Origin: Catajapyx aquilonaris
Taxonomy: Eukaryota
Direction: 5' to 3'
DNA length: 64,000 nucleotides
NCBI GenBank assembly: GCA_000934665.2
Contig: KZ538284.1
Location: 1 to 64,000, forward strand
The notes beneath the pieces are model-generated. The model worked only from the letters and a program-made list of their open reading frames with translations, was not told the origin of the DNA and searched no databases. Shown in pieces: positions 3,568-55,396 of the stretch. Every line of letters starts with the position of its first letter. The first letter of the stretch is position 1. The position numbers and the translations under genes were made by a program.

Positions 3568-5986
3568 ATGGACCAGATGCTTCCAAGCCCTGGGTTCAGC
3601 ATCCCCAGCATTGGAACGCCTCTGCACCAGCCGGAGGAGGACCAGCAGATCCTGCCGCACGCACAGCAGCAGCAACAGCTGCACCTTCAGGCCAGCACCA
3701 GCACCGTCGCCGCTGCTGCCGGACAGCCCTCTTCATCCTCCTCGCTGCCTCCTCCGCTGGCACCTCCGCTCCCACCTCCGGCTGCCCCACCCGCAGCCGC
3801 AGCCACAAGCTCTGGACTCACGCCGCAGCATGCCTTGCAGACATTCGCTCCATTCGCACACCAGCAGCCGCTCTTGCAGCCACAGACGCCGGTGGGTTAC
3901 CTTTGCATGGGTGGACTACAAAATTTTTTAAATTTAAAAGGATGAGCTTTTCCATCCGTCATTCCCTCCACGCTAAAGACAAGGGGGTTAAACCCAGTCG
4001 CAGACATTTTCTACATTTCTGCCAACAAGATTCATATTCTGAAACATGTGGTGTGCAATTATTTAGGAGATGCACAGCAGCTGCCGTTTGAATTGATACA
4101 TTCAGGCCAGCAGGGGCGTCGCTTCATTGCTGAATAAGTTTCAAGGGTGTATACTAGAATCTGAACCTTTCGTTTCTAGCAATCACATTTACATGTGCGC
4201 GATACCATCGCTAAATTGCAAATAATAACAACAATAATAATCATTATAATAACTAATAATAATAATATTAAATATTTGCGGGGGTTAGCATAAAAACATT
4301 TTCCCCAAGAAAGGATTTTCTTTCTGACAGTGAAAATTTCCAGGGTTCATAAAATGTCGCAAGTTTCCTCGTAACCGGCCGTAACCATAGTCACTAATAA
4401 TTAACTATGGTTACGACCAGTTACGACATTTGATGAATCCACCACCCCATCTTTTTAAAAATGCAACACTAGCCTGTGAGCAAACGAGCAAATGGAATTA
4501 TCATAAATTGGGCTGACTAAATATTCTGTGTTTAGTTTTTGGAAATGCCGTTTATTCCGTACACAGCCTGATGACAGTCTCTATAAATATTGCAAGAAAA
4601 TGTTGGTGTACTGTCCATCAGTCTTGCATGGAAGTAAATATTTTGTTTGCAATTTTTCTCATGACTGTCAGTTGTGCATCAGAGGGTTAAAATATTGATT
4701 CCGGTGTGGGGACCTAAATTATTTATGATTTTTGCATTCTTAAAAAAAACGACGCACTAAATTGGGAGAATATGAGTGAAATATTGTTATGCCTAGGAAA
4801 TGAGGAACAATCAGTTACGATGATGAGGCATTTTAACCAGCTCATTTCATTCGTGAGCCTAAAACTTTTGGCAATTTCATTAATACCGGTACGGGAGTAC
4901 TGTGCTTCTAAAATTGGTGGCTATGCAGCTAATAGTTCCGGATAGAAATAAAAATGTTGCCCGCTATTACTAGCACTCATCTTGACCTCTGTTGAAACGT
5001 CAGAGTGGCCTTCACAAGGGCTGGTGGTCTCATGCGGACAGGCAATCACGCCACCGCCCCTTGAAGAGCAAGTGAACCTCTCAACACCCGAATCAATAGA
5101 GGTCAAGATGAAAATGTGTCCAGTCATTTACAGCGATCTACGTTCGGCTATTATCTGTCATCCTATTTGTATGTGTCACATTTTATTAATAGGTAGGAGG
5201 AACTGGCTAATATTTTAAATTTTGCTAGTTTCATATCAGTAAATTTACGGGCTTGATATTTGTGTGTGCAGCAAGCGCTGCTGGGGACGACGCCTCTGGC
5301 TTCCCATGCACCTCAGAGTGCTGCGTCACTCTATGGCCCCGCAACACCTGCGCCTATGACGCCGCTTACTCCGTCATCAGCGGACCCTGGCATTGTGCCT
5401 CAACTACAGTAAGTTCCGTCCAGCCCAAACCGAGCATGACATTTTAAACTTTCGTTGTACTTTCAGAAACATTGTGTCGACTGTGAACCTGGGCTGCAAG
5501 CTTGACCTGAAGAAGATAGCCCTGCATGCCCGTAACGCAGAGTACAACCCCAAGCGATTTGCTGCCGTCATCATGCGCATCCGTGAGCCCCGCACCACTG
5601 CTCTCATATTCAGCTCAGGGAAGATGGTCTGCACGGGAGCAAAGAGCGAGGAGGACTCCCGCCTGGCTGCCAGGAAATACGCTCGCATTGTGCAAAAGCT
5701 TGGCTTCCAGGCCAAGTTCTTGGACTTCAAGATCCAGAACATGGTGGGCAGTTGTGACGTCAAGTTCCCCATCCGCCTGGAAGGACTTGTGCTCACCCAC
5801 AGCCAGTTTAGCAGCTACGAACCAGAGCTGTTCCCGGGGCTCATTTATCGGATGGTGAAACCACGCATTGTGCTCCTGATATTTGTGTCCGGGAAGGTGG
5901 TGCTCACTGGCGCCAAAGTGAGACAAGAGATCTACGAGGCATTTGAAAACATTTACCCTATTCTTAAGAGCTTCAAAAAGCAATAA
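3568..5986 (+). CDS. TBP: TATA-box-binding protein
   Basis: Exons 3568-3891, 5272-5408, 5467-5986 with GT-AG introns in frame; N-term [18 protein letters not shown] with short polyQ; core [49 protein letters not shown]...[10 protein letters not shown]. Confidence 0.98.
4343..4440. mobile_element. Small hairpin MITE in TBP intron 1
   Basis: GGGTTCATAAAATGTCG...CGACATTTGATGAATCC outer arms and CGTAACCGGCCGTAACCATAGT/ACTATGGTTACGACCAGTTACG inner arms. Confidence 0.55.
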
Positions 5987-6813: not shown

Positions 6814-9195
6814 TCACTCGTCCTCAACTACCGTCAACGTGTCCTCCGTGTCCGTAACGTCCTCCGATTCCTCTTCAGTTGGTGGCACGAACAATCCCAT
6901 GTCATCTGCCCCCTCAATCAAAGGGCAGAGGAATGGAGCCTCGACTCCCAGCACGTACTCGCAAGTGTGGGGTTCTAGAAGGTAGAGAGCAACACTGTTG
7001 CTGCTGGCACCTCCAGTCGCAGTCAGGAGAGTCTTCTCCATGCACTTGAGCTTGACTTCCACATGTCGCCTGCGTCCTGTCACGTCACATTCAGCACCGC
7101 CGGAGTAGTAGTGGTGGACAAATTTGCGCAGGAAGCGAGGCTTTGGCCTCTTGTGAGGGTTGCGCTCCAGCCACTGCTCGTGGCTGGCGCGGTCAAACTC
7201 TCCAAGGACAATCACACTCCGTCGGCCTTCCTTATCCTCATGGAACTGCTGCACGTGGCGGCCGTGGCACAGCTCAAACTTCCACCAGCCGCTGCCCTAC
7301 AGTGCACAAGTTAACGATGATTATTCATGTCGCTTATCTACAATCAACAGGATAACAAACCCCAATGAGGCAGTGCGTTCCTTCCAGAAACTGATTAACC
7401 ATTCGCTCATCTAGGGTTGGCTTCGGAGGGGGACGGATATCCAGTTTAGCGGCCTGTGAGGCAGATCCGCCAGCCGAGGGCCCCGAACCGCTCCCAGCTG
7501 AAGCAGAGTCCGCATCCGCATCCTCAATGGACTCTAGCTGTATCTCAAGAGGCCACCCTTCCCCTTTGATTTTGGCTTCCAGAGCCTCAAGGTCCTGCAG
7601 AAGGTTCTCATGCCGCAGCTTCAGGCTCTCAGCTTCCAGTTCGATGAGGCTGCGGGGTCTGGATGGACTCCCATCCTGTGCAATGCATCTCACCTCACTC
7701 TCGCTGGTCTCCTGGGGTCGGTACCTCGGATGGCGGCAGAGGTACGACGACAGTACAACGATCTCGTACTCACAGGTTGACACCTCGTCCAGGGAGTACA
7801 CTTCATGCTTTCCGTGCGGATAGCAAACGTACAGGATGTGAGACGTACGTGGGCGACCACTCAAGTCACACAGAGTCCCATCGGTCATGTTGATCTGTGA
7901 GATAACATTCAATAATGACATAGTGTGCCTTTATAATATACATAAGAATGAGCAATTCGACACACGCGCCCAAGCTGCTGGACGGACAGGTCGTGTCGGC
8001 TTTTGGATGCACTTTGGAGACAGGAGTGTCCCCATTGTCGCTAAGGCTATATGGCCACTGAGACGGTTTATAATCAAAACTAAAGAGCTTTCCGAATAAA
8101 GACTGGTGAAAATTGATTTCGACTCGACAATGTACAAGCTGCGGAACTGTTTCCCTCAGTGAATACTTGGGCAGTCCGACAAATTACATCATTGTTACAT
8201 AACTATACTTGATAATGTATTTCGGAAGTTTTGTAATTAAAATATGGTGCTGTGTCCCCCTAAAAGGGGCCATGCCCTGTTACAGGGTAAGAAATAAATG
8301 TTTTTTTTATTTTTAATGTGAGCAATTTGATCAGCGATGTGGTGTTACTTTTGCTCAGCAACTTACATCGCTGCACATCGCAGCACAGTTGAACTGGCCT
8401 ACATATTCACCTGCAGATAAGGCATGTTGACACCTTCAATTCGCCTTGACGGGACACTGACAGGTCCGGACGTGTCAGACGCAGTGTCTGACAGGCGGGA
8501 TAGTCGATCCAGTTCAGCCTCGTACTTCTCTCGTTCCTCCTTACTCCACTTCCCAAGATAGTACTCCTGAAGGCGCACCTTGCGACCCTCACGCTCTTCG
8601 TGGTACTGACGGATGAAACGCCCGTGGCAGAGCTCATACGTCCAGTACGTATCCAACTGCAATAATTACATCAATGAAAATGCACATTCCTTTATACCGC
8701 GATGGAGTGCTGTGTAATGATTAGTTCCCTGTTCTTATTACCCGATATGAACAGGACATTGCTGCGAACAGCGGTGAGAGCAGCTGCAGCGGGTTAGGTC
8801 CTCTGTAGTTTGTCGAATCATCCTGCACGGAACAATGGTTATTAAACAACGTCCTTTATTATGGCGCTCAATTCCGTGCTTACATTGGGCTCCCCCCAGG
8901 AGACAGGCAGGATGCACTTGTACTTCTCCTGGTTGGCAGTGATCATCGTGATGCTCTCTGCCTCCTCCGGCTGTGTGTACGGAACGCATGTCATATCATC
9001 TGCACTTACTTTTTATAAATTGATTTTTTATGAATTTATTTTTATAAAGTATACCAGTATTCCTGTCGACTCTTCCCTTTCCTCCGGCCATGTGATCTTG
9101 AACAGAATGGAGTCGTCGAACGCCCTGAAGTCCCCGCTCCCACCAGCCTCCAACACCAGCTGGACCACCAGCAACACCCAGCACCCTCTCATCAT
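6814..9195 (-). CDS. ERLEC1: Endoplasmic reticulum lectin 1 (XTP3-B/erlectin; two MRH/PRKCSH domains)
   Basis: Approx. exons 9195-9055, 8970-8884, 8822-8742, 8656-8411, 7894-7361, ~7297-6814; signal peptide MMRGCWVLLVVQLVL; motifs [46 protein letters not shown] and a second MRH domain ending YLLEPHTCEYVLGVEAPFLC. Confidence 0.92.
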
Positions 9196-9942: not shown

Positions 9943-11756
<1,814 letters not shown>

Positions 11757-18500: not shown

Positions 18501-21500
18501 AGTTGGAGGGAGCATTACAAACGCAAGCACTCAATGAACTCACGCACTCAACAACCAACCAACTGGAGTGTGCCCAAGCCGGCACACCGGCCTAAAGACA
18601 TAAAAATCAGCAGACGGGTAAATAAACGAATGAACAGAGAAACCACAACGTGATCTACTATTTGGTCAGCAGCGAAAAAATCTAAACATCAGCTGACAAC
18701 TTTGGCTTGGATATTTGGTTACGACGCTTGTCTGGCAGGAGGAGGTGGTGGGTGGGGCGGGGCGGGTCATGGTTTAGGTGAATAATAGAAAGACGAAAAA
18801 GACGGGGAAAAAGTGGCCTAACCTGGGAAATGAGAGGAGAGGGCCAGGTGAACCAGACTGGTGACAGAGCTGGGCGTGCGGGCCAGGATATTGGCTGCAG
18901 CCGGTATGGTGTTGTCGTAGGAAATGGGCAGGGCGGATGGCGGGAGGAATGCTCCCGGGGGTGGGGACATTAGCTGGGGCGGTGGGGCAACCCCCACCCC
19001 ACCTCCTCCTCCCATCCCCCCGACCACCATCCCACTGCCGGGGGGAGGCGGTGGCACAGCAGGAGGGTTGAATACCCCCATGGCCAGCCCCACCCCGAAG
19101 GCAGCTGCAGACGGTGGCAGCATCACTTGCGGAAGCGGTGGCGGATGGCCCGTCCTCCGCCGGGCCACGGCCACGAATGTTTCAAGCAAGTTAATGGCCG
19201 GCTCCGCGCTGCTCAGGTTGGGCACACTCACACTCATGGAGTCGTTGGTCCGAGAGGAAGGAGTGGTACGAAGGGGCGGTGGGCCTTGGCAGCCACCCAG
19301 AGCTGCGCGAATCTCACCCGAGCGGCGGCGTCCCTCCCTGGCAGCAGCCACACTGCTGCCACTCCCTGTTGTACCAGTAATACTGCCTGCAGTAACCATC
19401 GGGGATTCTGGAATTTCCTCTGAGCAAGTTTCAACCACCACAGTGGAAGAAGTGGCACTGCCCCGGGTGGTGGGAGGAGGAACCTGGCGTAGTCCCAACC
19501 CTGGTGGGAGCTCCCCAGACAAGACACAGTTGCGGTCATTGTTCAGAAGAGCCAAGTTGTCTTCGCTTAAGTCCAGGCTGCTCGGGCCTCCACGCTGGCT
19601 ACCCAAGTGGACCTGGAGAAGGACAAAACGCGTGAAAAAAGTTCAGGGTCAATTATTATGTTCAACTCGTACCTTGAGTTTGCTGCTGTAACTCATGGGC
19701 TTTGCAGGAGCCCCTCCAGACGACCTGGTGCTTCCTGATGATCCTCCCCTGGCGGCAGCAGGAGGCATGTCAGGCAGAAGTACGCCCATGGGTGTAGAAG
19801 TGTACTCGGCCTCCACAATGGTGGCCAGGTCACACACAGCAGCAGAGGCACCATGCCCACTGAGTAGCCCAGCTGTCTTCTGAGCCCTCTCTATGGCCGC
19901 CTGGATGCTCACCGAGTTGCTCTCCTCCCCCGAGAGGCTGCTTCCTAAGCCGCCTCCAAGACTGCCACCCAGGCTTCCTCCCAGGCTGCCCCCAAGGCTG
20001 CCACTAAGGTTTCCTCCTAGATTGCCTCCGAGGCTCCCTCCTAAGCTGCTGCCAAGGCTGCTGAGCTTGCTGTCACTGCTCATAGCCACCATGGCCTCAG
20101 CATTGGCTTTCGACAAGACACTTTCTGCCAGTGCTTCTGCCGCTTGCTGTCAAAGTACGAATGTCAGAATTAGTTGCGATTTACAATTGACGCTAGCAAT
20201 GATATTTTCACACTACCCATGCAGGTTTTACTATAACATTATAATTTATGTATCATCCCGAAGAGAGAGTATATTCGATACAGCAGAATACCTCACCAGT
20301 AAGGATGAATTCAAATTTATTATAGCATGATACATGAGGGGGTTAAAATCAAAAACCGACAGCTCCAGAAAATTAAAAAAAAAAAGAGTTAGCGCCGGAA
20401 ATGCATTCCACATGCCATGGACTACATAATACCTGAATATGGTATCCGTTTTTCTCCGTTACGTTTATGACGGAGCTGTCGGTTTTTTATTTTAACCCCC
20501 TCACATATCCATCACAAACATACAAGCCTGGATGGTTTTTCTCTCATGCATCAAGTCCATTGCAACAACGCATCAATACTGTGTTAACAATTATGATGCT
20601 CATTCGTAAACAAGAAATAATTCACTACAGATAATGTATTATAGATAAAAAAAATACCCTACAATACCCCAAAATTATGTATGACTTGTAATGAAAGTAA
20701 CACGTATTAACCGTACCTTGGCAGCCAGATTATCTGCAGAGGCAGCCTGATCAGTGGAGGCCACCGAGGCCTTTGCATGGCAGTCAGTGACATCAGGGAG
20801 GCTAGGGGTGGAGCTGGATTTCCGTGAAGACAACACGCTAGTGGTTGATGAATTTTTAGTCTGTTCACTTGGACCAGTCCCTGCAATGGTGGGTAGCCTG
20901 GGTGCACATCCTGATGAGCTACGCTGACAAGGAATCGCAGGAGCTCCACTGGTCTTGTTGGCCGATGGAACCATGGGTGCAGACGAGGTGGGGAGGGAAG
21001 AGGATGTGAGAGGCACTGGGACCCCTGAGGTTGGAGGAGGAGGTGGAGGGGCATGGACGTCTGGGTCGTACCCTGGGGCCAGGCGGAGATCGTACTTGCC
21101 TTCTGCACCCATTCGGTACGAGTTGGAACCTCCATGATCCCAAGTCACATCTATCCAACCTGAAAGGCCAATTGGTATCGTCACTTCCACTGAGCCCTTG
21201 TTAAATGTAACAACCACAATTTAAAAAGTCACAGGTGTTTCATCCCCAACAGTGAGTGCATCAATATCAAGATACCTCACCAGTAAGGATGAATTAAATT
21301 TGTTATAGCATTACTTCTTCCCTCACAGACATAAATCCGGAAGGCGTATTTCATGCATCTGTCGATTGATTAAAACCCAACATCATTCCATTGACTACAT
21401 TATGCACGTCTCATCACAAGTCTTACCATTATGAAGCTCCCCGGTGACAGTCCCTTCCCCAGGTGGCAGCCCATCTTGATCCCGCCACTTCCAGTCAATT

Positions 21501-24500
21501 CCCCTGACTACCCTTGCTCCAACAACCATGTGTTTGAGAACTAGTGTGCGCAGCTGTCTCCTCTGCCTGCGAAGATTGGCCTCGGCTTCTTTCACTGCTT
21601 TGCCCAAGTCTTCACACACTCCAGTCACAGTTCCGTACACTTCAAACCCAGACAGGCTCAAGTAGTGTGTCTGCCCTGAAGCATTCTTCCCCATCTGCTG
21701 CAGGCGGAAGTGCCTCCACCCCTGCGTCTCGTCTGAAGGGGGCTCCAGAGGCCATGATGCTGTGCTGCCTGGTTCATTCAAGGAGCAGTCATCCGAGTGG
21801 GTGTACAGAGTGGTCCAGGTGACACCATCCTTTGAAACCTGCAAATCCAATCGGTGGTTAGCCTGACATTTCCACAGGCACTGTGTTCAGAAATGGGACG
21901 TGTTTCATCTCCAACAGTGAGTATACTGATACACAAAATATCTCACCAGTAAAGATGAATGTATAGTTAATATTGCATGTTAAACAGGACCCCCAAAGAT
22001 AAAAACATCTTGGTGGCAATAATTTGTTTCATGCTTCAGCAACCAGTTTAAGCTCCAGTTTTAAAACCAGACCTCATTACAAGTACATTTGAATTTCAGC
22101 CAGATAATACTTCATCAAGTAGTGTTGCAGTAAATAACTTTGCATTATTTTTCACGGAAATAAACACACACCTGGAAGAGCCAGTTTCGGAGTGCAGAGC
22201 GCCCATATCCTCTTGCATGACGCAGAGTGTAGCAGGTGGGAATTAGCCAAAGGCCCAGGTCAAGGGCAAACCAGGCTCTCTTGTCGTCATTTGTGTGGCA
22301 GTTGAGAGCCGAGGCATCGCGGCTCAGGACATCCTCCAACCGTCCATAGGGGAGGTTCCGGCCCTCGGAAGAAGTCACCACCACTAGCCCATACTGTGCT
22401 GGGTTCACCCACTCGGAACTTGTTCTGCAAGGACAAATCACTTGCATGATAAGTACATGTCGTTAACTGAATTGTCAACTTAAAAGTATCGCTAAATGCA
22501 GTTAAGCTGAGTGTGACTTGAAGCGAACATGTTATCACTTTGGGAAATGGAAGGAGATTTACAGTTTTAAAGAAATGCAGATAAGGGGCATAGGAATGAA
22601 AATATAACACTGACTTTGCATTAGTTCCAATCCAGTAGATAACACCATTGTCATCAAAGTCATGTTGATGCCTGAAGGAGAGGGATCTTCCTTCCCTCAG
22701 CTTGCGGACAAAGGCAAAGGTGGACCGGTCGTAGTCGTACCACTGCTTTGCCACCATTTTGAGCAGGAAGTGCTCCAGTTGGGACACAGTCGTGAGGGGC
22801 TCCATCTTGAGGGATCGGCCCGTCCTGTCCAGCAGGGAGCTCTCCCCAGGTGCCTTCTCCAGGCGAAACCTCAACCGGCGGGTCAGAATCTGCAGGCCAT
22901 AACCTGACCCAGGTGAGTCGTACAGGTACACAGGAAGCTTCTCAATGGACTCCAGCACAGCCACCAGCTTCCGCACCAGTGCTGTGGCAGGAGGTACCCC
23001 AGATCCAGGCCCACATCCATCTTCCCTGGCCGAGGCCTCTTTCAGGCACTCCCGAACCACATCTAGTCTCTGTCTCTGCAGACGGGCTTCTCTCTTGGCA
23101 CTGCGCAATTCCTCCACTTCTGACAATCCAGTTGCACTTTAATGAGGGAAGACGCATATCAACATTTTGTTTCTTTACACTCGACTAGTTAAAGTTAATG
23201 ACAACTAGGTTATACCTGTGCGTGGCAAACAAGGCCAGAAGTGCCTGCACCAGCCCGCTGGAGTGCAGTTCGTAAGCAGAGATGACGCTGTCCTCAGCCA
23301 GTAGTGGCAGCAGCTGGTGAAGAGCTTGCCGAAGAGCTTCCCGCCACTCGTCTCTCATCTCCCTGTTGTTCATTCGTTGCTTATGGCAGGCCCTCTCCAA
23401 CTGAGCCACTATGGCCCCCAGTTTGGCAACGACACCTCTGGGCCTTGCCCTTGCTGCCCTGAAGTGCTTTTCGTACACGTCTGCTGCCTGAGATCGCACC
23501 TTCTGCTTCAGGGCTTCCATCTTTGATCGTAGCCTCCTACCACGCCTTCCTGCCCAACCAGCAGAAAACTCTGGGCCCAGAGATGTCTCCGCCGTGAATG
23601 AGTGCTTCGTCCCACGATTAGATTCAAACACAAAGCCTGCCACATCCTCCCGCAGTATTGTCACCTGCAATGAAATCGCAGCAGTGATTAGAAACTAAGA
23701 CAAAGGTCCAAGTGCAAGGCCAGACTAATGAGTTTCACATCTTAAGTGACACTGGGTACATTTATGCCATTTGTACTATGCAGATTGTATTAACCACATC
23801 TAAAAATTAATCTGCGCAAAGGCTTTTTTACTATTAAAAATTAAGTCAAATTAGCTTACGTCTTGTAATAAATATTATGCCAGGCAGTCATTTCTTGGCT
23901 TTACATACTTGAATAAGACACAAACTGTACGATATGAATTGATTTAATTAATTTTGAGTAAATTTTGCCCTTAAATTTTGACGATGGGTCAGCTTTCCCT
24001 TGAACGGAACCATTACAAACAGTAACGAAACTTGATGCTACTGTTTCTAAGGACTTATTAATTCTTCTCCCCCTCCCCTCGCCTCTTATCTTATCAAGAG
24101 GACGGACAGCTGCTGGCATACACACACATTCCGCAACAATGCTCAACTCACATTGGCCTGCTCTTGAGAACACATCCTCACCTGCTGCTGTCCGTCTGAG
24201 TTGAGTATGTGCAGTTCTCTCTCCTTTCTGCTGGTGAGGGACCAGTTGCCCACAACCAGACGGGTGGGTCCTGGCTGGCTGAGGATGGGCTGACTTGGGC
24301 TGCCCGACTTCACCTGAGCCCTGGCTCGCTGCAGCTTCTCCAGGAACTCCCCTCGGTTCTCTGCAAAACGCACAACTGCTCCCTCGTCACCACACCATCG
24401 CTACTGTCTCATGCACTGTGACCAGATCTCTTTAGCACAGTGTTCTGTACAACTTACAGTAAGCAATTCCCATCAATTTACAAAAATGCTATGCACCAAC

Positions 24501-38822: not shown

Positions 38823-40423
38823 TTATCTGCAGAAGAAAGGGATGGATATGGGTGCCCGATCTCGCTTGCGAGCTTCCAGATCTGAGAAAAAATTGCGGAT
38901 GTCCTCTTCCCGAACCACCTTGCGCTCATCAGCAAATGATTTCAGGTATGACTTCAGTTGCTCCCGTAGATCATTGTAACCTGATGGAAAAATATACCAT
39001 TTTATCACTATGAAATATATTGTTGGAAGGCTCACTTTCAAAGCCCGCATCTACAGTAGATCCAAATGATGTGAAAGAGATTCAAAACATGCACTCGGTA
39101 GGCAAGAAACATGTGATACACCAAAGACTTTTAACCCACCATGTATGGCCTCGACTTGCTGCACCCGGTCGAGGTTAGAGAGTGCCTGCATTCCCCTCTC
39201 ATAGTGCGACCCTCCTTGTGCAGCAGGCCTCTCCTTCCCGCTGGCTTCGTATGCCTGAACCGTATCCCCCTCATCAGTCAGGAATTTCACTCCTTTCTCC
39301 TCGTACATGGCCACACATGACTTGCACCCACAGAGTCTACGTCGCCATCCCTGAGGCCAGAATGTGGCTCCCTTCTTCTCCTCCACATCTTTCTTCAAGA
39401 GACAGCCGTTGCTCTCCGCAGGGCTTGCCTCTGTGATCCCAGAGTAGCCCCACAGGAAGGGATAGCGAAGCATGCAATCAGCACACACCATTTCTTCATA
39501 GTCATCCTCCGGGGGGACACGGCAGCCCAGATGACGCCCATGATACCAATCCTCACACACTATGCATTGGAGCATCTCGTCCGGGGTGTCGTCCTCGGGG
39601 TCCGGATAAGGACGGGCACAGGTGCAGTACACACCACGAAAGTTCTGGTTGTATGAGTTCTTTTCATTCTCTGCTGCCTTGTTCTAGGAAACAATGCGAA
39701 CAATAATCCAACTATTCGTTCATTGTTATGAGGCTACCATTAGTATAAAGGCGCATTGATCACTTTCTTAACGGAAGTAGGAACAGTAGGCGCTAGAAAG
39801 CACGCAAGCAGCTGCAGGGAGCATTCTGACTGGCTGACCGTTCCTACTTACATTAGGAAAGTGATCGTGTAACAGTCGTAAAAAGCATGACAAAGAACCG
39901 ACTCATCTCTCGCCTCTTTGCTCCGGATGGCAATACTTACAGGCTCAAGGTTGCACTTGGCTCCATTTGGGAACCTGGAATTTCCACAATCACATCGGAA
40001 GCTCCTCTTGGTGTAGAGCTCCACAAGCTTGTGTCCCTCATGGCAATGGTAACTGCAGGCCAGGCAAATCCCAGCCGGGCTCTGCCCAGGCGACGGAGGC
40101 ATGCAGGTGGTGCACGCATACAGAGCCTGCCTGGGAAGGTATCCCTGGTTGTACGTACAGTTCTGGTCATCCGATCCACCCAGTACAGCCTCCGCATCAG
40201 CCTCCAAACTCTGCTCCTCTTCCAGTACATCCAACATTGTCACAGTCCCTTCTTCCACATCCTCCATGTCTGCCGGTACAACAAATGTTAGCGCTGAGCG
40301 ATACAAAACCGGAGTCAACTCACTATCCGGCGGCTCCTTGTCCTGAGTTGGCCCGGTGTCCCTTCCCTTCTTGGCTGGCTCTCCCTCACCATCAGGTCCA
40401 CCTGGTCGCTTGTTGCTGTTCAT
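38823..40423 (-). CDS. UBR7: Putative E3 ligase UBR7 (UBR-box zinc finger plus PHD)
   Basis: Approx. exons 40423-40324, 40269-39941, 39683-39140, 38980-38823; motifs AVLGGSDDQNCTY, GICLACSYHCHEGHKLVELYTKRSFRCDCGN, YCTCARPYPDPED, MLQCIVCEDWYH, VVREEDIRNFF; start codon less certain. Confidence 0.93.
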
Positions 40424-40880
40424 CCCTGGAAGTCCTCCTCCTTAGGGAACCCCCAAGCCAGTTGGCAACAAAGGCAAAGGGATGCGTTGTGGCGGCAGGC
40501 TGCTCCCTTTCACCTTCCCAGGCACCAGCGCCCTCTTTTCATCCCCAACGGATCCCTTTTTGTGTATATGCAACGGCCGTTGGGAAAAAAAGACCTTTTG
40601 TCACTGATTAAAAAAAACAGGTGTTGGGAATTAATAGGGACATCTCAGGGACATTATTGGGACGTCCAGATGGCGGGAGGGTTTGAATAATGCAAACATG
40701 CCCATCATGATGCCCATATAAGTTATTATTGTCAGTATACTGTCAGTATCCCTAGTGACAGCTGTCAACAGTCTATGTACATTTTAATACACCGATTGGA
40801 GGAGGGTAAAATGGTGGTCTGAGTATTGATCAAGCAGGCTCTCCTGAGGTAAAATTGACAGGTGGGTTTGAAGGTCCAAT

Positions 40881-51939: not shown

Positions 51940-54552
51940 TTACTGCTTGAGCCAACTCGGTGTGATGGTGTAGAAGTTCCACCTCTGGAAGGAGTTGTTA
52001 GCATCACAATCAAGCAGCTTGAGCTTATTTGCATTGGGCATGACAGCCAGGCACCTCCCCTGGGGCTTGTGGTGCATGAGTCCTGTCTCCTTCTCGTAGA
52101 CCCAAGGCCCATCCACTGCCCCTAGGCGGCAGAAGACCAGCCTGACTCCTTGGCGATCCCCGTCAACACAACGCTCTCCTATTCCTAGTTGGCCCTTGGC
52201 ATTCAGGCGCACTAGCTGATTGCTCCCGAAGCCATGGCAGAAAGCAATGCCCATCTCCGTCGGAGCAGGCTGGCCCATGGTGTCCAAGCATTGCTTAGTA
52301 GCCAGGTTTTTCATCTGATAAATGACAAACCGTAAGTTACTGTAATTTAACTGAACTGATAGACAAACATCGTTATATTTAGAACCAATTTAGAATGAAA
52401 TTAAATATTCAATGTTCTGCAAAAGTTGTCTTCAACTCACATTTCAATTCTCCTGGCTTCAAGTACGCAGTCTAATTCTAAATCGATTCCACACTCATCA
52501 ATGCAACAATGAAAGGAGGATTGTGGACTCACCTCTCCCCAGTACAAGTTAGGCGGCAGCTCAGGATACTTCTCGACCATGTCGTAGGCAACATTTTGCA
52601 TGTACCATTCAAAATTCTTGCATCCCAAACGCTTCTTCATTGCTAACTGTTCGGAGATGTCACCCATGTCCAAGAACCGTGCAAGTGGCTCTCTCGTATA
52701 AAAATACTCCTTGTACTTGTCATCGAACCAAACTTCGATCACCCTCTTGTAATTCTGAAAGTAGTACGTGAATGAGCATCTTAATGAACACGCTTATTTT
52801 TAGTCACATCCATTGCTCGACTTACATTGGTGATGATGGGTCCCTTCTTCTTCTCAGCCAGCTTCCCAAAGTTATAAGGCATAAACCCTCTGTACACATG
52901 TCCAACCCTAGAACAGGGCACCCACTGGATGGCACCCCCACATTGCCAGATCTTAAAAGACAACTCAAAATTCTCCCCTCCCCACACTAGCAGCCCGGGA
53001 TCGTATGCCCCAATTGAGAGGAAGTATTCACGGTTGATGGCAAACAGACCACCCGCATGTGTGGGTGAGTAGTATGGCTCCGAGCGGTACTTCCTTCTGT
53101 TGGTTTCCTGCCGAGGCAACTCTGTCTCCTTGTATAGCATCCCCCATTCAAATATGCCTCGGAAGTCTTGTTGACCCTGGTACACAGGGCGGTACTCAAA
53201 AGTGGTGTGATCTACACCGTCTATCACTGGGACCGTCATGGTGGTGCGGCTGGCCCTGATGGGAGCCAGCAAAGGGGGAAGCCAGTTACGGTTGACCTCA
53301 CAGTGGGCGTCCAGGAAGAGGACCACCTCTCCACGTGCCACTGTCGCACCGAATGTCCGGGAACGAATCAAACCCTCCCGCTCCTTATTTCGGACCAAGC
53401 GGACCTTTCCTCTGAATCGGCGGATGTAGTCCTCAAGACGACCCTTCAGATGATCTGAGAGATTAAAATTTATGATCACTGTCGAGATTTAGTGTTCACT
53501 TCTAGTTTAATTCAATACTTTTACAATACGAATAATCTTTCACACATGCTATATTGTCACTAGTTAAAATTAAGTCAATCAACTCTGATAATAGATTTGT
53601 CCTCGCTTTCTACCTCAAATAGCAGATGAATCGTGAACCAATGTTTCATATGCACAACATCTCACCTTTGTCACTGTAGTCATCGACAAGCAGCACTTCC
53701 TCCAGGAACTGCGGAGGACTCCTGTTAATGACGGTATGCACAGTCCTAAGAAGCGTGGACCATCCCTCATTATGAAACACAACGACCACACTAGTCTTTG
53801 GGAGGTCGTCTATGTAGTTCCAATGGGGACACTCTGGATGCCTGGTGTCCGGTATGCTCCTGTCCATAGATATCTCATCAGAACACACCATGTTCATTCC
53901 AAACTCAGTCTGCGATTGGGACACCAGGTTCTGCTGCTCAGGCTTTGTGTAATGAGGCTTCCCTTGCTCTCCAGGCTCGTTTTTAGGCGTCTCAGGAAGA
54001 GGCTCAAAATTCCCTCGCACACCAGCGCTAAACCACGCTATCTGCCCCGTCTGTAAAAGTTAGGACCTGGTTTCACCAAGCTCGGTATATCATAAAACCA
54101 GGTTTCTTTCGGATGGATTTTCCAAAAGAAACCTGGGTGTTATCATACACCGAGCGCGGTGAAACTGCTTAGTAGCCTACGAAGGGTGAACAATATTAGA
54201 TAAATTCTCTACGTACTGTGCACGTTTGATGGTTTTAAAAGCCTCATAAAATGATTATGGCCGAATAAAAATGACATTGGTACTAAAAAGTAGTGCGATT
54301 GCCATATGTTCCATTTTGATCTTTGACGTACGATCTGTCACTTTTTGTGTTCTGCCTCACCCTCTTAGGCGGCCTCTTGACTTTCACTCCGTCTACAGCC
54401 GCCTTGTTGGTGTCCCTCAGATGCTCCGCCAGCAGCTCATCCTCTCCTCCGCCTCCCATCATGGACCAGAGGAAGTGCAGCACCAAGAGTACAGCCAGGG
54501 CAATCAGGGTCAGCTTCAGCATTCGACTCCTCCTCATCTGAACCACCTTCAT
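51940..54552 (-). CDS. GALNT7: Polypeptide N-acetylgalactosaminyltransferase 7 (pgant7-like)
   Basis: Approx. exons 54552-54361, 54050-53666, ~53453-52826, ~52753-52533, 52314-51940; type II TM anchor, SVVVVFHNEGWSTLLRTVH, FLDAHCEV, SPTHAGGLFAI, WGGENFELSFKIWQCGG, ricin lectin C-term. Confidence 0.93.
54070..54165. mobile_element. ~96-bp hairpin/MITE in GALNT7 intron 1
   Basis: GTTTCACCAAGCTCGGTATATCATAAAACCAGGTTTCTTT vs AAAGAAACCTGGGTGTTATCATACACCGAGCGCGGTGAAAC. Confidence 0.6.
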
Positions 54553-55396
54553 CTTATTGTTGCTGGTGGGGCCGTGAGTCAGTCAGTCGATGACCCCCCC
54601 TGATCCTCGTGTGGGAAGAAGAAGAGAGTCGCGGTGGTAGGTGTGAAAGGGGAGGAAAAAGGAGGACACACACAACACGTCAAGGTGTGCTCATAAGCAC
54701 AGGTGCATCTTTTTGCCGACGTGCAGCTGAAGCCACGTTGCCATGTCGCATTGCCGGCGGGTCTGAACGATTCAGAAATGTACAGGCCGATCACTCTCGG
54801 GTCTGAATTTGTCTCTTGATGTTAATTTATTAATTGCGGATTATTTAAAATAGGGTTGTGATCTTTAAGAAGTGTGGCAACGCTGCGTGGAACATGGCGC
54901 GATTTTTTGAACTGCACATTTTTGTCGGTCAGCAGATTGCCAAGGACAACAAAATATAAAAATATATAAAAAAATGGAATACTTTTTACAGAAATTGATT
55001 AGGTGCAATTAGGTATACAGTACAGAATTTGTATACCGGTAATGAAATTACCTCCATTACAATATAAAGAGGTTTCATACAAATTACACGCAGTAAAATG
55101 TGCGTATGATCACTCACCGATCAGGAAGCAAGTGAGGCATATCTGTACAATGCACTGGACAGTATCGGAGAGGACCATTGTAGCACTAAAGCACGAGAGA
55201 GCGTTTACAATAATGCATGGGTGATGTGTACGTAGTCCGAATAAGCCGAAGTTGGCAATTCTGGCATTATTGTCGACTGAAACCATAGAAACATAGGCGG
55301 TTGGTGCTATTGGTCTGTGAATATAAACTCCCTGTTGGAATAAAAACTTTTATCAAATGGGACTCACACCAGAGGGATGGAGATTATAGATTCACC

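Follow-up and report, generated by a model that had tools for sequence, protein, structure and literature searches.

The intron-encoded box H/ACA small nucleolar RNAs (snoRNAs) of animals are pseudouridylation guides and are bound by dyskerin/Cbf5, Nop10, Nhp2 and Gar1. They are built as two hairpins joined by a hinge and followed by a tail, with an H box (ANANNA) in the hinge and an ACA box at the base of the 3′ hairpin. Clusters of H/ACA isoforms in successive introns of one host gene occur, for example in Drosophila, and microRNAs (miRNAs) derived from H/ACA RNAs are a known phenomenon. We present here three units, A, B and C, on the minus strand of a 64,000-nucleotide window (contig KZ538284.1 of assembly GCA_000934665.2, Catajapyx aquilonaris, positions 1 to 64,000 of the forward strand), which lie in three consecutive introns of the gene for the E3 ubiquitin ligase HECTD1. 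The three are probably best explained as paralogous intron-encoded box H/ACA snoRNA candidates that arose by local duplication within HECTD1 and may guide the modification of 18S rRNA. A sequence-only reading of this DNA had already proposed a family of H/ACA guides spread by intron-to-intron duplication; the architecture, boxes, spacing, covariation and ACA boundary found here in silico agree with that proposal.

Like animal intronic H/ACA snoRNAs, the units have the hairpin-hinge-hairpin-tail plan, an ANANNA H box, a 3′ hairpin with the ACA at its foot, a distance of about 15 nt from upper stem to box and a length of ~125-137 nt, and they occur one per intron in the sense orientation. Unlike them, they match no Rfam H/ACA family, and two copies have a 3′ pocket that G-U pairs keep shut. 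They resemble the intronic isoform clusters in being paralogs by local duplication, one per intron, and differ in that the host is a large gene for a protein, an E3 ligase, and that one copy carries a transposon insert. In humans, the sole HECTD1 entry of the catalogue in Jorjani et al. 2016 (PMC4914119) is AluACA37, likewise an H/ACA-class RNA in a HECTD1 intron; it is Alu derived, ~250 nt long, lowly expressed and unrelated in sequence, with no orthology to the units. The nearest counterpart by target is human SNORA41 (RF00403; host gene EEF1B2), for which the supplementary table of the same paper reports the target 18S-1644.

Results

The 18-mer TTCATCYTTACTGGTGAG has three matches in the window, all on the minus strand (20292-20309, 21276-21293 and 21942-21959), where chance would give a mean of 0.08; none of 100 shuffles reached three. 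From the closing ATGC of the 5′ hairpin to 3 nt past the ACA, the 3′ halves of the copies align over 83 columns with a mean column identity of 87%; conservation of the 3′ hairpins had been noticed from the sequence. A covariance model, R1, was built on this alignment and run over the whole window on both strands with filters off. The three copies received 94-103 bits, and no other place on either strand exceeded 16 bits. In the 64 kb the block has no occurrence besides these three, which are neighbours, share one orientation and lie one in each of three consecutive introns; this upholds the initial description. A metagenome scan with a 17-mer seed returned 116 loci, all of them chance matches (median flank identity to unit B, 24%; best, 23 of 62 positions).

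Stop-to-stop frames on the minus strand from ~12.5 kb to ~31 kb read as one large protein. The translation of a 418-residue exon matches proteins named E3 ubiquitin-protein ligase HECTD1 of arthropods, vertebrates and molluscs with 58-65% identity and E down to 1e-146, in a comparison that covered only proteins of 733-2090 residues; by these matches the gene would belong to an invertebrate that had no near relation among the proteins compared. The last exon encodes the end of the HECT domain, and the MIB_HERC2 domain (Pfam) is split by the intron that holds unit B: the exon before this intron encodes profile positions 1-27 and the exon after it positions 39-65. Contigs of X1, a sequencing run of unknown kind that contains 0.28 of the sampled words, cover none of the units, which has no bearing on their expression. 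Their joints lie at the introns of A and B (Table 1), and these two introns are therefore removed in real molecules; that of C is predicted. From the end of the unit to the last intron base we measured 58, 72 and 98 nt, close to the ~60-100 nt upstream of the 3′ splice site, sense to the host, that had been read at first. HECTD1, which ubiquitylates ZNF622, is listed among ribosome-biogenesis factors in a review (Table 14 of PMC10068337). As a host it fits the preference of snoRNAs for translation-related genes and proves nothing.

The hairpin-ANANNA-hairpin-ACA architecture that had been described from the sequence appears in the folds of A, of B and of C without its insert. Unit A folds at −37 kcal/mol (z −3.5). 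The unconstrained fold of B reaches −44.3 kcal/mol (z −6.35), a stability that none of 200 shuffles attained, and displays an internal loop of 8+8 nt in the 5′ hairpin, a single-stranded hinge that holds the H box, and the ACA directly at the base of the 3′ hairpin. Without its insert, C folds as hairpin-hinge-hairpin-ACA at −36.4 kcal/mol with a 5′ pocket of 8+7 nt, and its alignment with B spans the whole unit; as it stands, it has a long extra helix in the 5′ hairpin. The unit size first given, 126-139 nt, does not hold for C as it stands, which the insert in its 5′ hairpin brings to 304 nt (Table 1). In all three units the H box begins 1 nt after the 5′ hairpin, within the hinge, and the ACA stands 0-1 nt past the 3′ hairpin.

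The distance from upper stem to H box is 16 nt in A, 13 nt in B and 14 nt in C, and that from upper stem to ACA is 14 nt in each. H/ACA RNAs are described as keeping a fixed distance of ~15 nt between upper stem and box (De Zoysa et al. 2018, PMC6049503). The spacings of 13-16 nt match this rule, which argues for the H/ACA assignment. We also folded the sequence upstream of each of the 2631 ACA triplets on both strands and asked for two single hairpins, each 40-75 nt long, a hinge that starts with ANANNA and measures 8-22 nt, an ACA at most 2 nt from the second hairpin and a free energy of at most −30 kcal/mol. Exactly two places were returned, A and B. Two other classes were considered and rejected: small Cajal body-specific RNAs, because the UGAG motifs of the units lie in stems and not in apical loops, and mirtrons, because the hairpins lie away from the intron ends.

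Identity between the copies varies by segment. The 60-nt flanks are about 50% identical (49-51%; 60% for the upstream flank of B and C), the 5′ hairpin 56-71%, the hinge 60-87%, the 5′ arm of the 3′ hairpin 94-100%, its apex 53-76% and its 3′ arm 74-95%. When the introns are aligned locally, with C taken without its insert, the alignment of every pair ends at the ACA (ACA or ACAC); that of B and C starts about ten bases ahead of the 5′ hairpin. The end of similarity at the ACA and the contrast between flanks and arms point to purifying selection on an RNA with the ACA box as its 3′ boundary.

Both upper stems carry compensatory changes, in keeping with the stem change seen earlier. In the 3′ hairpin, 93.9% of the cells at 22 proposed pairs are paired, against 36-55% with one strand slid, and three pairs have changed on both sides (C-G/U-A; A-U/G-C/G-U; U-A/C-G). 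The 5′ upper stem has, in all three units, two runs of 5 bp separated by a single bulged U, with 29 of 30 cells paired. Its pairs 4 (C-G versus U-A) and 6 (A-U versus C-G) have changed on both sides, and four more pairs show wobble-mediated single changes. The claim that the 5′ hairpins keep only their GCAT/ATGC base is therefore to be dropped, since their upper stem is homologous in all three.

Which two units resemble each other most changes along their length. Over the 5′ hairpin and the hinge it is B and C. In the 3′ hairpin, A and B agree at 18 of 19 positions of the 3′ arm, whereas the apex is most alike in A and C. Such a mosaic may reflect short-tract gene conversion between the introns.

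The sequence CUUACUGG is conserved on the 5′ side of the 3′ pocket, where it sits immediately beneath the upper stem, at 14 nt from the ACA. It forms eight Watson-Crick pairs with CCAGUAAG, which follows U-C in the 18S stretch GAGGAAU-U-C-CCAGUAAG. As this perfect 8-base complement comes after U-C, the U before C-CCAGUAAG stands at the expected target position; 0.5% of 8-mers fit some U-N site in 1.9 kb of rRNA. The rRNA test set came from five loci fetched by a short 18S motif, three of which (L117, L119 and L121) are eukaryotic small-subunit (SSU) rRNA by Rfam across the match and read aacgaggaat-T-c-ccagtaagcg. The complementarity to CCAGUAA of 18S that had been pointed out in the sequence-only reading was thereby confirmed on three SSU loci, in the expected geometry. 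These three loci lie in contigs binned as Paracoccus, Myxococcales and Planctomycetales and carry eukaryotic SSU, 5.8S and large-subunit rRNA (Rfam); they are eukaryotic ribosomal DNA mis-binned into bacterial metagenome-assembled genomes. The other two, L118 and L120, contain the 20-mer motif and gave no Rfam rRNA match.

The opposite side of the pocket had been judged not to fit, which is right for A and B and wrong for C. In A and B it reads CUGUUGG, can form no more than 3 pairs with the target and instead engages the 5′ side by G-U pairing, so that the pocket closes. In C it reads CUCUUCG, of which UCUUCG pairs with CGAGGA at six positions in a row; four bases of the target (AUUC) stay unpaired. 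Six pairs at the 18S site are reached by 1.0% of all 7-mers and 1.7% of the 7-mers of the window. The two-sided total for C, 8 + 6 = 14 bp, lies above all 30 shuffled guides. For yeast, De Zoysa et al. (PMC6049503) report that at least 8 bp are needed and that up to four unpaired pocket nucleotides are tolerated. On paper, C would therefore qualify as an 18S guide and A and B would not. The 5′ pockets differ between the copies. A two-sided scan of all six pockets over ~2-2.6 kb of rRNA, permissive in that shuffled guides reach 11-14 bp, gave a usable target neither for any of the 5′ pockets nor for the 3′ pocket of A or B.

In our reading of the SNORA41 sequence in the table of PMC4914119, the 5′ pocket has CTACTGG on one side and ATTCCTC on the other. 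These would pair with the same 18S stretch, in the same orientation, as CUUACUGG, and the uridine before C-CCAGUAAG appears to be the site guided by human SNORA41. A breast-cancer study (PMC10227372) mentions pseudouridine 1643 of human 18S, presumably 18S-1644 under another numbering. The resemblance lies in CTACTGG on the 5′ side of the pocket, which, like CUUACUGG, is the complement of CCAGUA(AG) after U-C. The differences are several: SNORA41 carries the guide in its 5′ hairpin, with a 3′ side (ATTCCTC) that abuts the target U, whereas the units carry it in the 3′ hairpin, with a 3′ side that fits in C only and 2 nt further upstream; the host genes differ; and RF00403 gives no match to the units at E up to 10. 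The units would be at most a functional analogue of SNORA41 and not a member of its family.

Units A and B have an intact architecture. Unit C is interrupted by an insert that behaves like a miniature inverted-repeat transposable element (MITE), being short and noncoding, with inverted repeats, a target-site duplication and multiple copies. The inverted-repeat arms (20329-20366 and 20472-20509) are 38 nt long and 92% complementary, and a short direct repeat, read from the sequence, flanks the insert. For the comparisons above, C was trimmed by coordinates, with the insert and one copy of the repeat removed. There is no second copy of the insert within the window. Two X1 contigs match only inside it (20400-20446 and 20447-20503), one of them setting its end at 20503, and since they then continue into unlike sequence, the insert also occurs elsewhere in the nucleic acids of that organism. 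We had considered C as a decaying pseudogene and withdrew this as the sole reading, because the substitutions that leave cells of its 3′ helix unpaired create the complementarity to 18S.

Table 1. Positions of the candidate units, the insert and the host introns in the 64,000-nucleotide window
Feature	Position	Strand	Length	Remarks
Unit A	21898..22034	−	137 nt	5′ hairpin 22034-21975; H box AUAUUA 21973-21968; 3′ hairpin 21959-21904; ACA 21903-21901; +3 nt
Unit B	21233..21356	−	124 nt	5′ hairpin 21356-21308; H box AUAACA 21306-21301; 3′ hairpin 21293-21239; ACA 21238-21236; +3 nt
Unit C	20246..20549	−	304 nt as it stands, 133 nt without insert	H box AUAAUA 20323-20318; ACA 20251-20249; +3 nt
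Unit C hairpins	5′: 20549-20506 and 20334-20325; 3′: 20309-20252	−		3′ hairpin with open internal loop
MITE-like insert	20335..20503		about 167-169 bp	Lies within unit C, on the 3′ strand of its 5′ pocket; terminal inverted repeats; 2-bp or 4-bp target-site duplication
Host intron with unit A	21839..22171	−		After 21841 an X1 contig goes on directly with the upstream exon; GT and AG read
Host intron with unit B	21160..21426	−		X1 contig passes from 21157 to 21425 and leaves out 267 nt bounded by GT..AG
Host intron with unit C (predicted)	20147..20716	−		GT..AG and continuous reading frame; outside the contig joints

Discussion

If the units are H/ACA snoRNAs, as we think probable, they would be transcribed within the HECTD1 pre-mRNA and bound by dyskerin-type H/ACA proteins while still intronic. 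After splicing, exonucleolytic trimming would leave RNAs of ~125-137 nt that end 3 nt past the ACA. Their most likely job would be for the 3′ hairpin with CUUACUGG to guide pseudouridylation of the 18S uridine before C-CCAGUAAG.

Several points weigh against this assignment. Rfam placed no family on them, either at gathering thresholds over the whole window or at E up to 10 over 19800-22500, RF00403 included; its matches otherwise were four chance-level ones to long noncoding RNAs or miRNAs, in exons. The thresholds of the ACA scan were set after the candidates had been seen, so that the scan speaks for the rarity of the architecture and gives no unbiased false-positive rate. The covariation of the 3′ hairpin was reached by 44 of 500 shuffles and is statistically weak, with three sequences only. 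C has four unpaired cells in the 3′ helix, and the lower stem of the 5′ hairpin of B is only 4 bp long. The minimum-energy folds of A and B close the 3′ pocket into a nearly continuous helix, which would take ~6 kcal/mol to open. Their two-sided total at the proposed site, 8 + 3 = 11 bp, is below the shuffled mean of ~12, and one-sided pairing (11 + 0) fails in the yeast experiments of PMC6049503. C, the best guide of the three, carries a 169-bp insert in its 5′ pocket. Finally, the ~2-2.6 kb of rRNA consisted of parts of 18S and 28S from unspecified eukaryotes, and a better target may lie elsewhere in rRNA or among the snRNAs.

Some of these points would suit units that are relics, derived from H/ACA RNAs and now silent or nonfunctional, whose similarity stems from recent duplication or gene conversion and not from selection. 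The mosaic of similarity is what gene conversion would give, the rRNA scanned yielded no two-sided target for A and B, and C is disrupted by its insert. We nevertheless consider relics unlikely, as the flanks have fallen to ~50% identity, the random level, while the units keep two stems by compensatory changes; neutral decay would not keep boxes, spacings and pairing in all three.

Decidedly unlikely, too, is that the 3′ hairpin is the functional unit, as the precursor of a miRNA-like small regulatory RNA of independent or snoRNA origin. In A and B the 3′ hairpin forms an almost unbroken helix of ~23 bp that ends in a small loop, so that the pocket is closed in two of the three copies, and the 5′ arm of the hairpin is the best conserved segment (94-100%), as a mature strand would be. 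The canonical animal miRNA precursor that Drosha processes, however, has single-stranded flanks and a stem of about three helical turns, and stems of 22-23 bp with unpaired flanks are too short for such a substrate. A miRNA-like precursor would also leave unexplained the H box, the ACA at the base of the helix, the covarying 5′ hairpin and the spacings of 13-16 nt, and no Rfam mir family was found on the units (19800-22500) at E up to 10.

It is highly improbable that the block represents a piece of a dispersed repeat (a short interspersed nuclear element or a MITE) that came to lie in three introns, or a cis-acting structure for HECTD1 splicing. Its GGUGAG stretch, read from the sequence, does resemble a 5′ splice site, but a search of 62 kb on both strands gave 0 further copies, and the copies share one orientation, occur one per intron and have the boundaries of snoRNAs. 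The one element here shown to recur is the insert in C, which bears little likeness to the block and was present in other contigs.

Within the H/ACA assignment, the three units might form a frozen series of one guide changing jobs, with C as a working 18S guide, its pocket open and complementary to the target on two sides, that tolerates a 169-bp transposon in its other pocket, and A and B, their corresponding pocket closed, as H/ACA-scaffolded, pre-miRNA-like hairpins of ~23 bp. Such a series would record, in one gene, the passage of a snoRNA to a small regulatory RNA; we regard it as improbable.

The kind of arrangement is well known, and the units are a further example of it. Current understanding is unchanged, and their main use is for annotation. 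If they are expressed, an invertebrate lineage that has been sparsely sampled would have in them pseudouridylation guides not yet annotated. These would then probably serve a conserved uridine of the 18S head domain that is modified in vertebrates by an unrelated-looking snoRNA in another host gene, a small and clean case of guide turnover at a conserved modification site, with possible replacement of SNORA41 function. The units would also illustrate how local intron-to-intron duplication, pocket divergence and transposon insertion shape snoRNA families. The insert in a guide pocket and the closed pockets of A and B are curiosities.

Other observations

The sequence-only reading had also named SNORA89 as possibly lying in human HECTD1. 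The table of Jorjani et al. (PMC4914119) places SNORA89 in NPAS3 instead, so that synteny of the units with a snoRNA of human HECTD1 is not supported. A full-text literature search found no paper with the word SNORA89, and in a search for HECTD1 together with snoRNA, none of the matches listed was, by its title, on a hosted snoRNA.

The HECTD1 exon just downstream of the intron with unit C contains, at 19935-20078, eight overlapping copies of a repeat with a period of 12 nt. On the minus strand these encode a (G/S)LGG-type run, a low-complexity coding insert. Neighbouring frames, named from their translations alone, read as a TATA-binding protein core (5360-5986, plus strand), an OS9-like lectin (6814-8665, minus strand), a cytosolic malate dehydrogenase (10420-11651, plus strand), a UBR7-like zinc-finger protein (39051-40441, minus strand) and a polypeptide GalNAc-transferase (52400-54600, minus strand); with such neighbours, the locus is gene dense, with short introns. 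The window contains a single N, which shows as X in one minus-strand frame close to its beginning (148-393).

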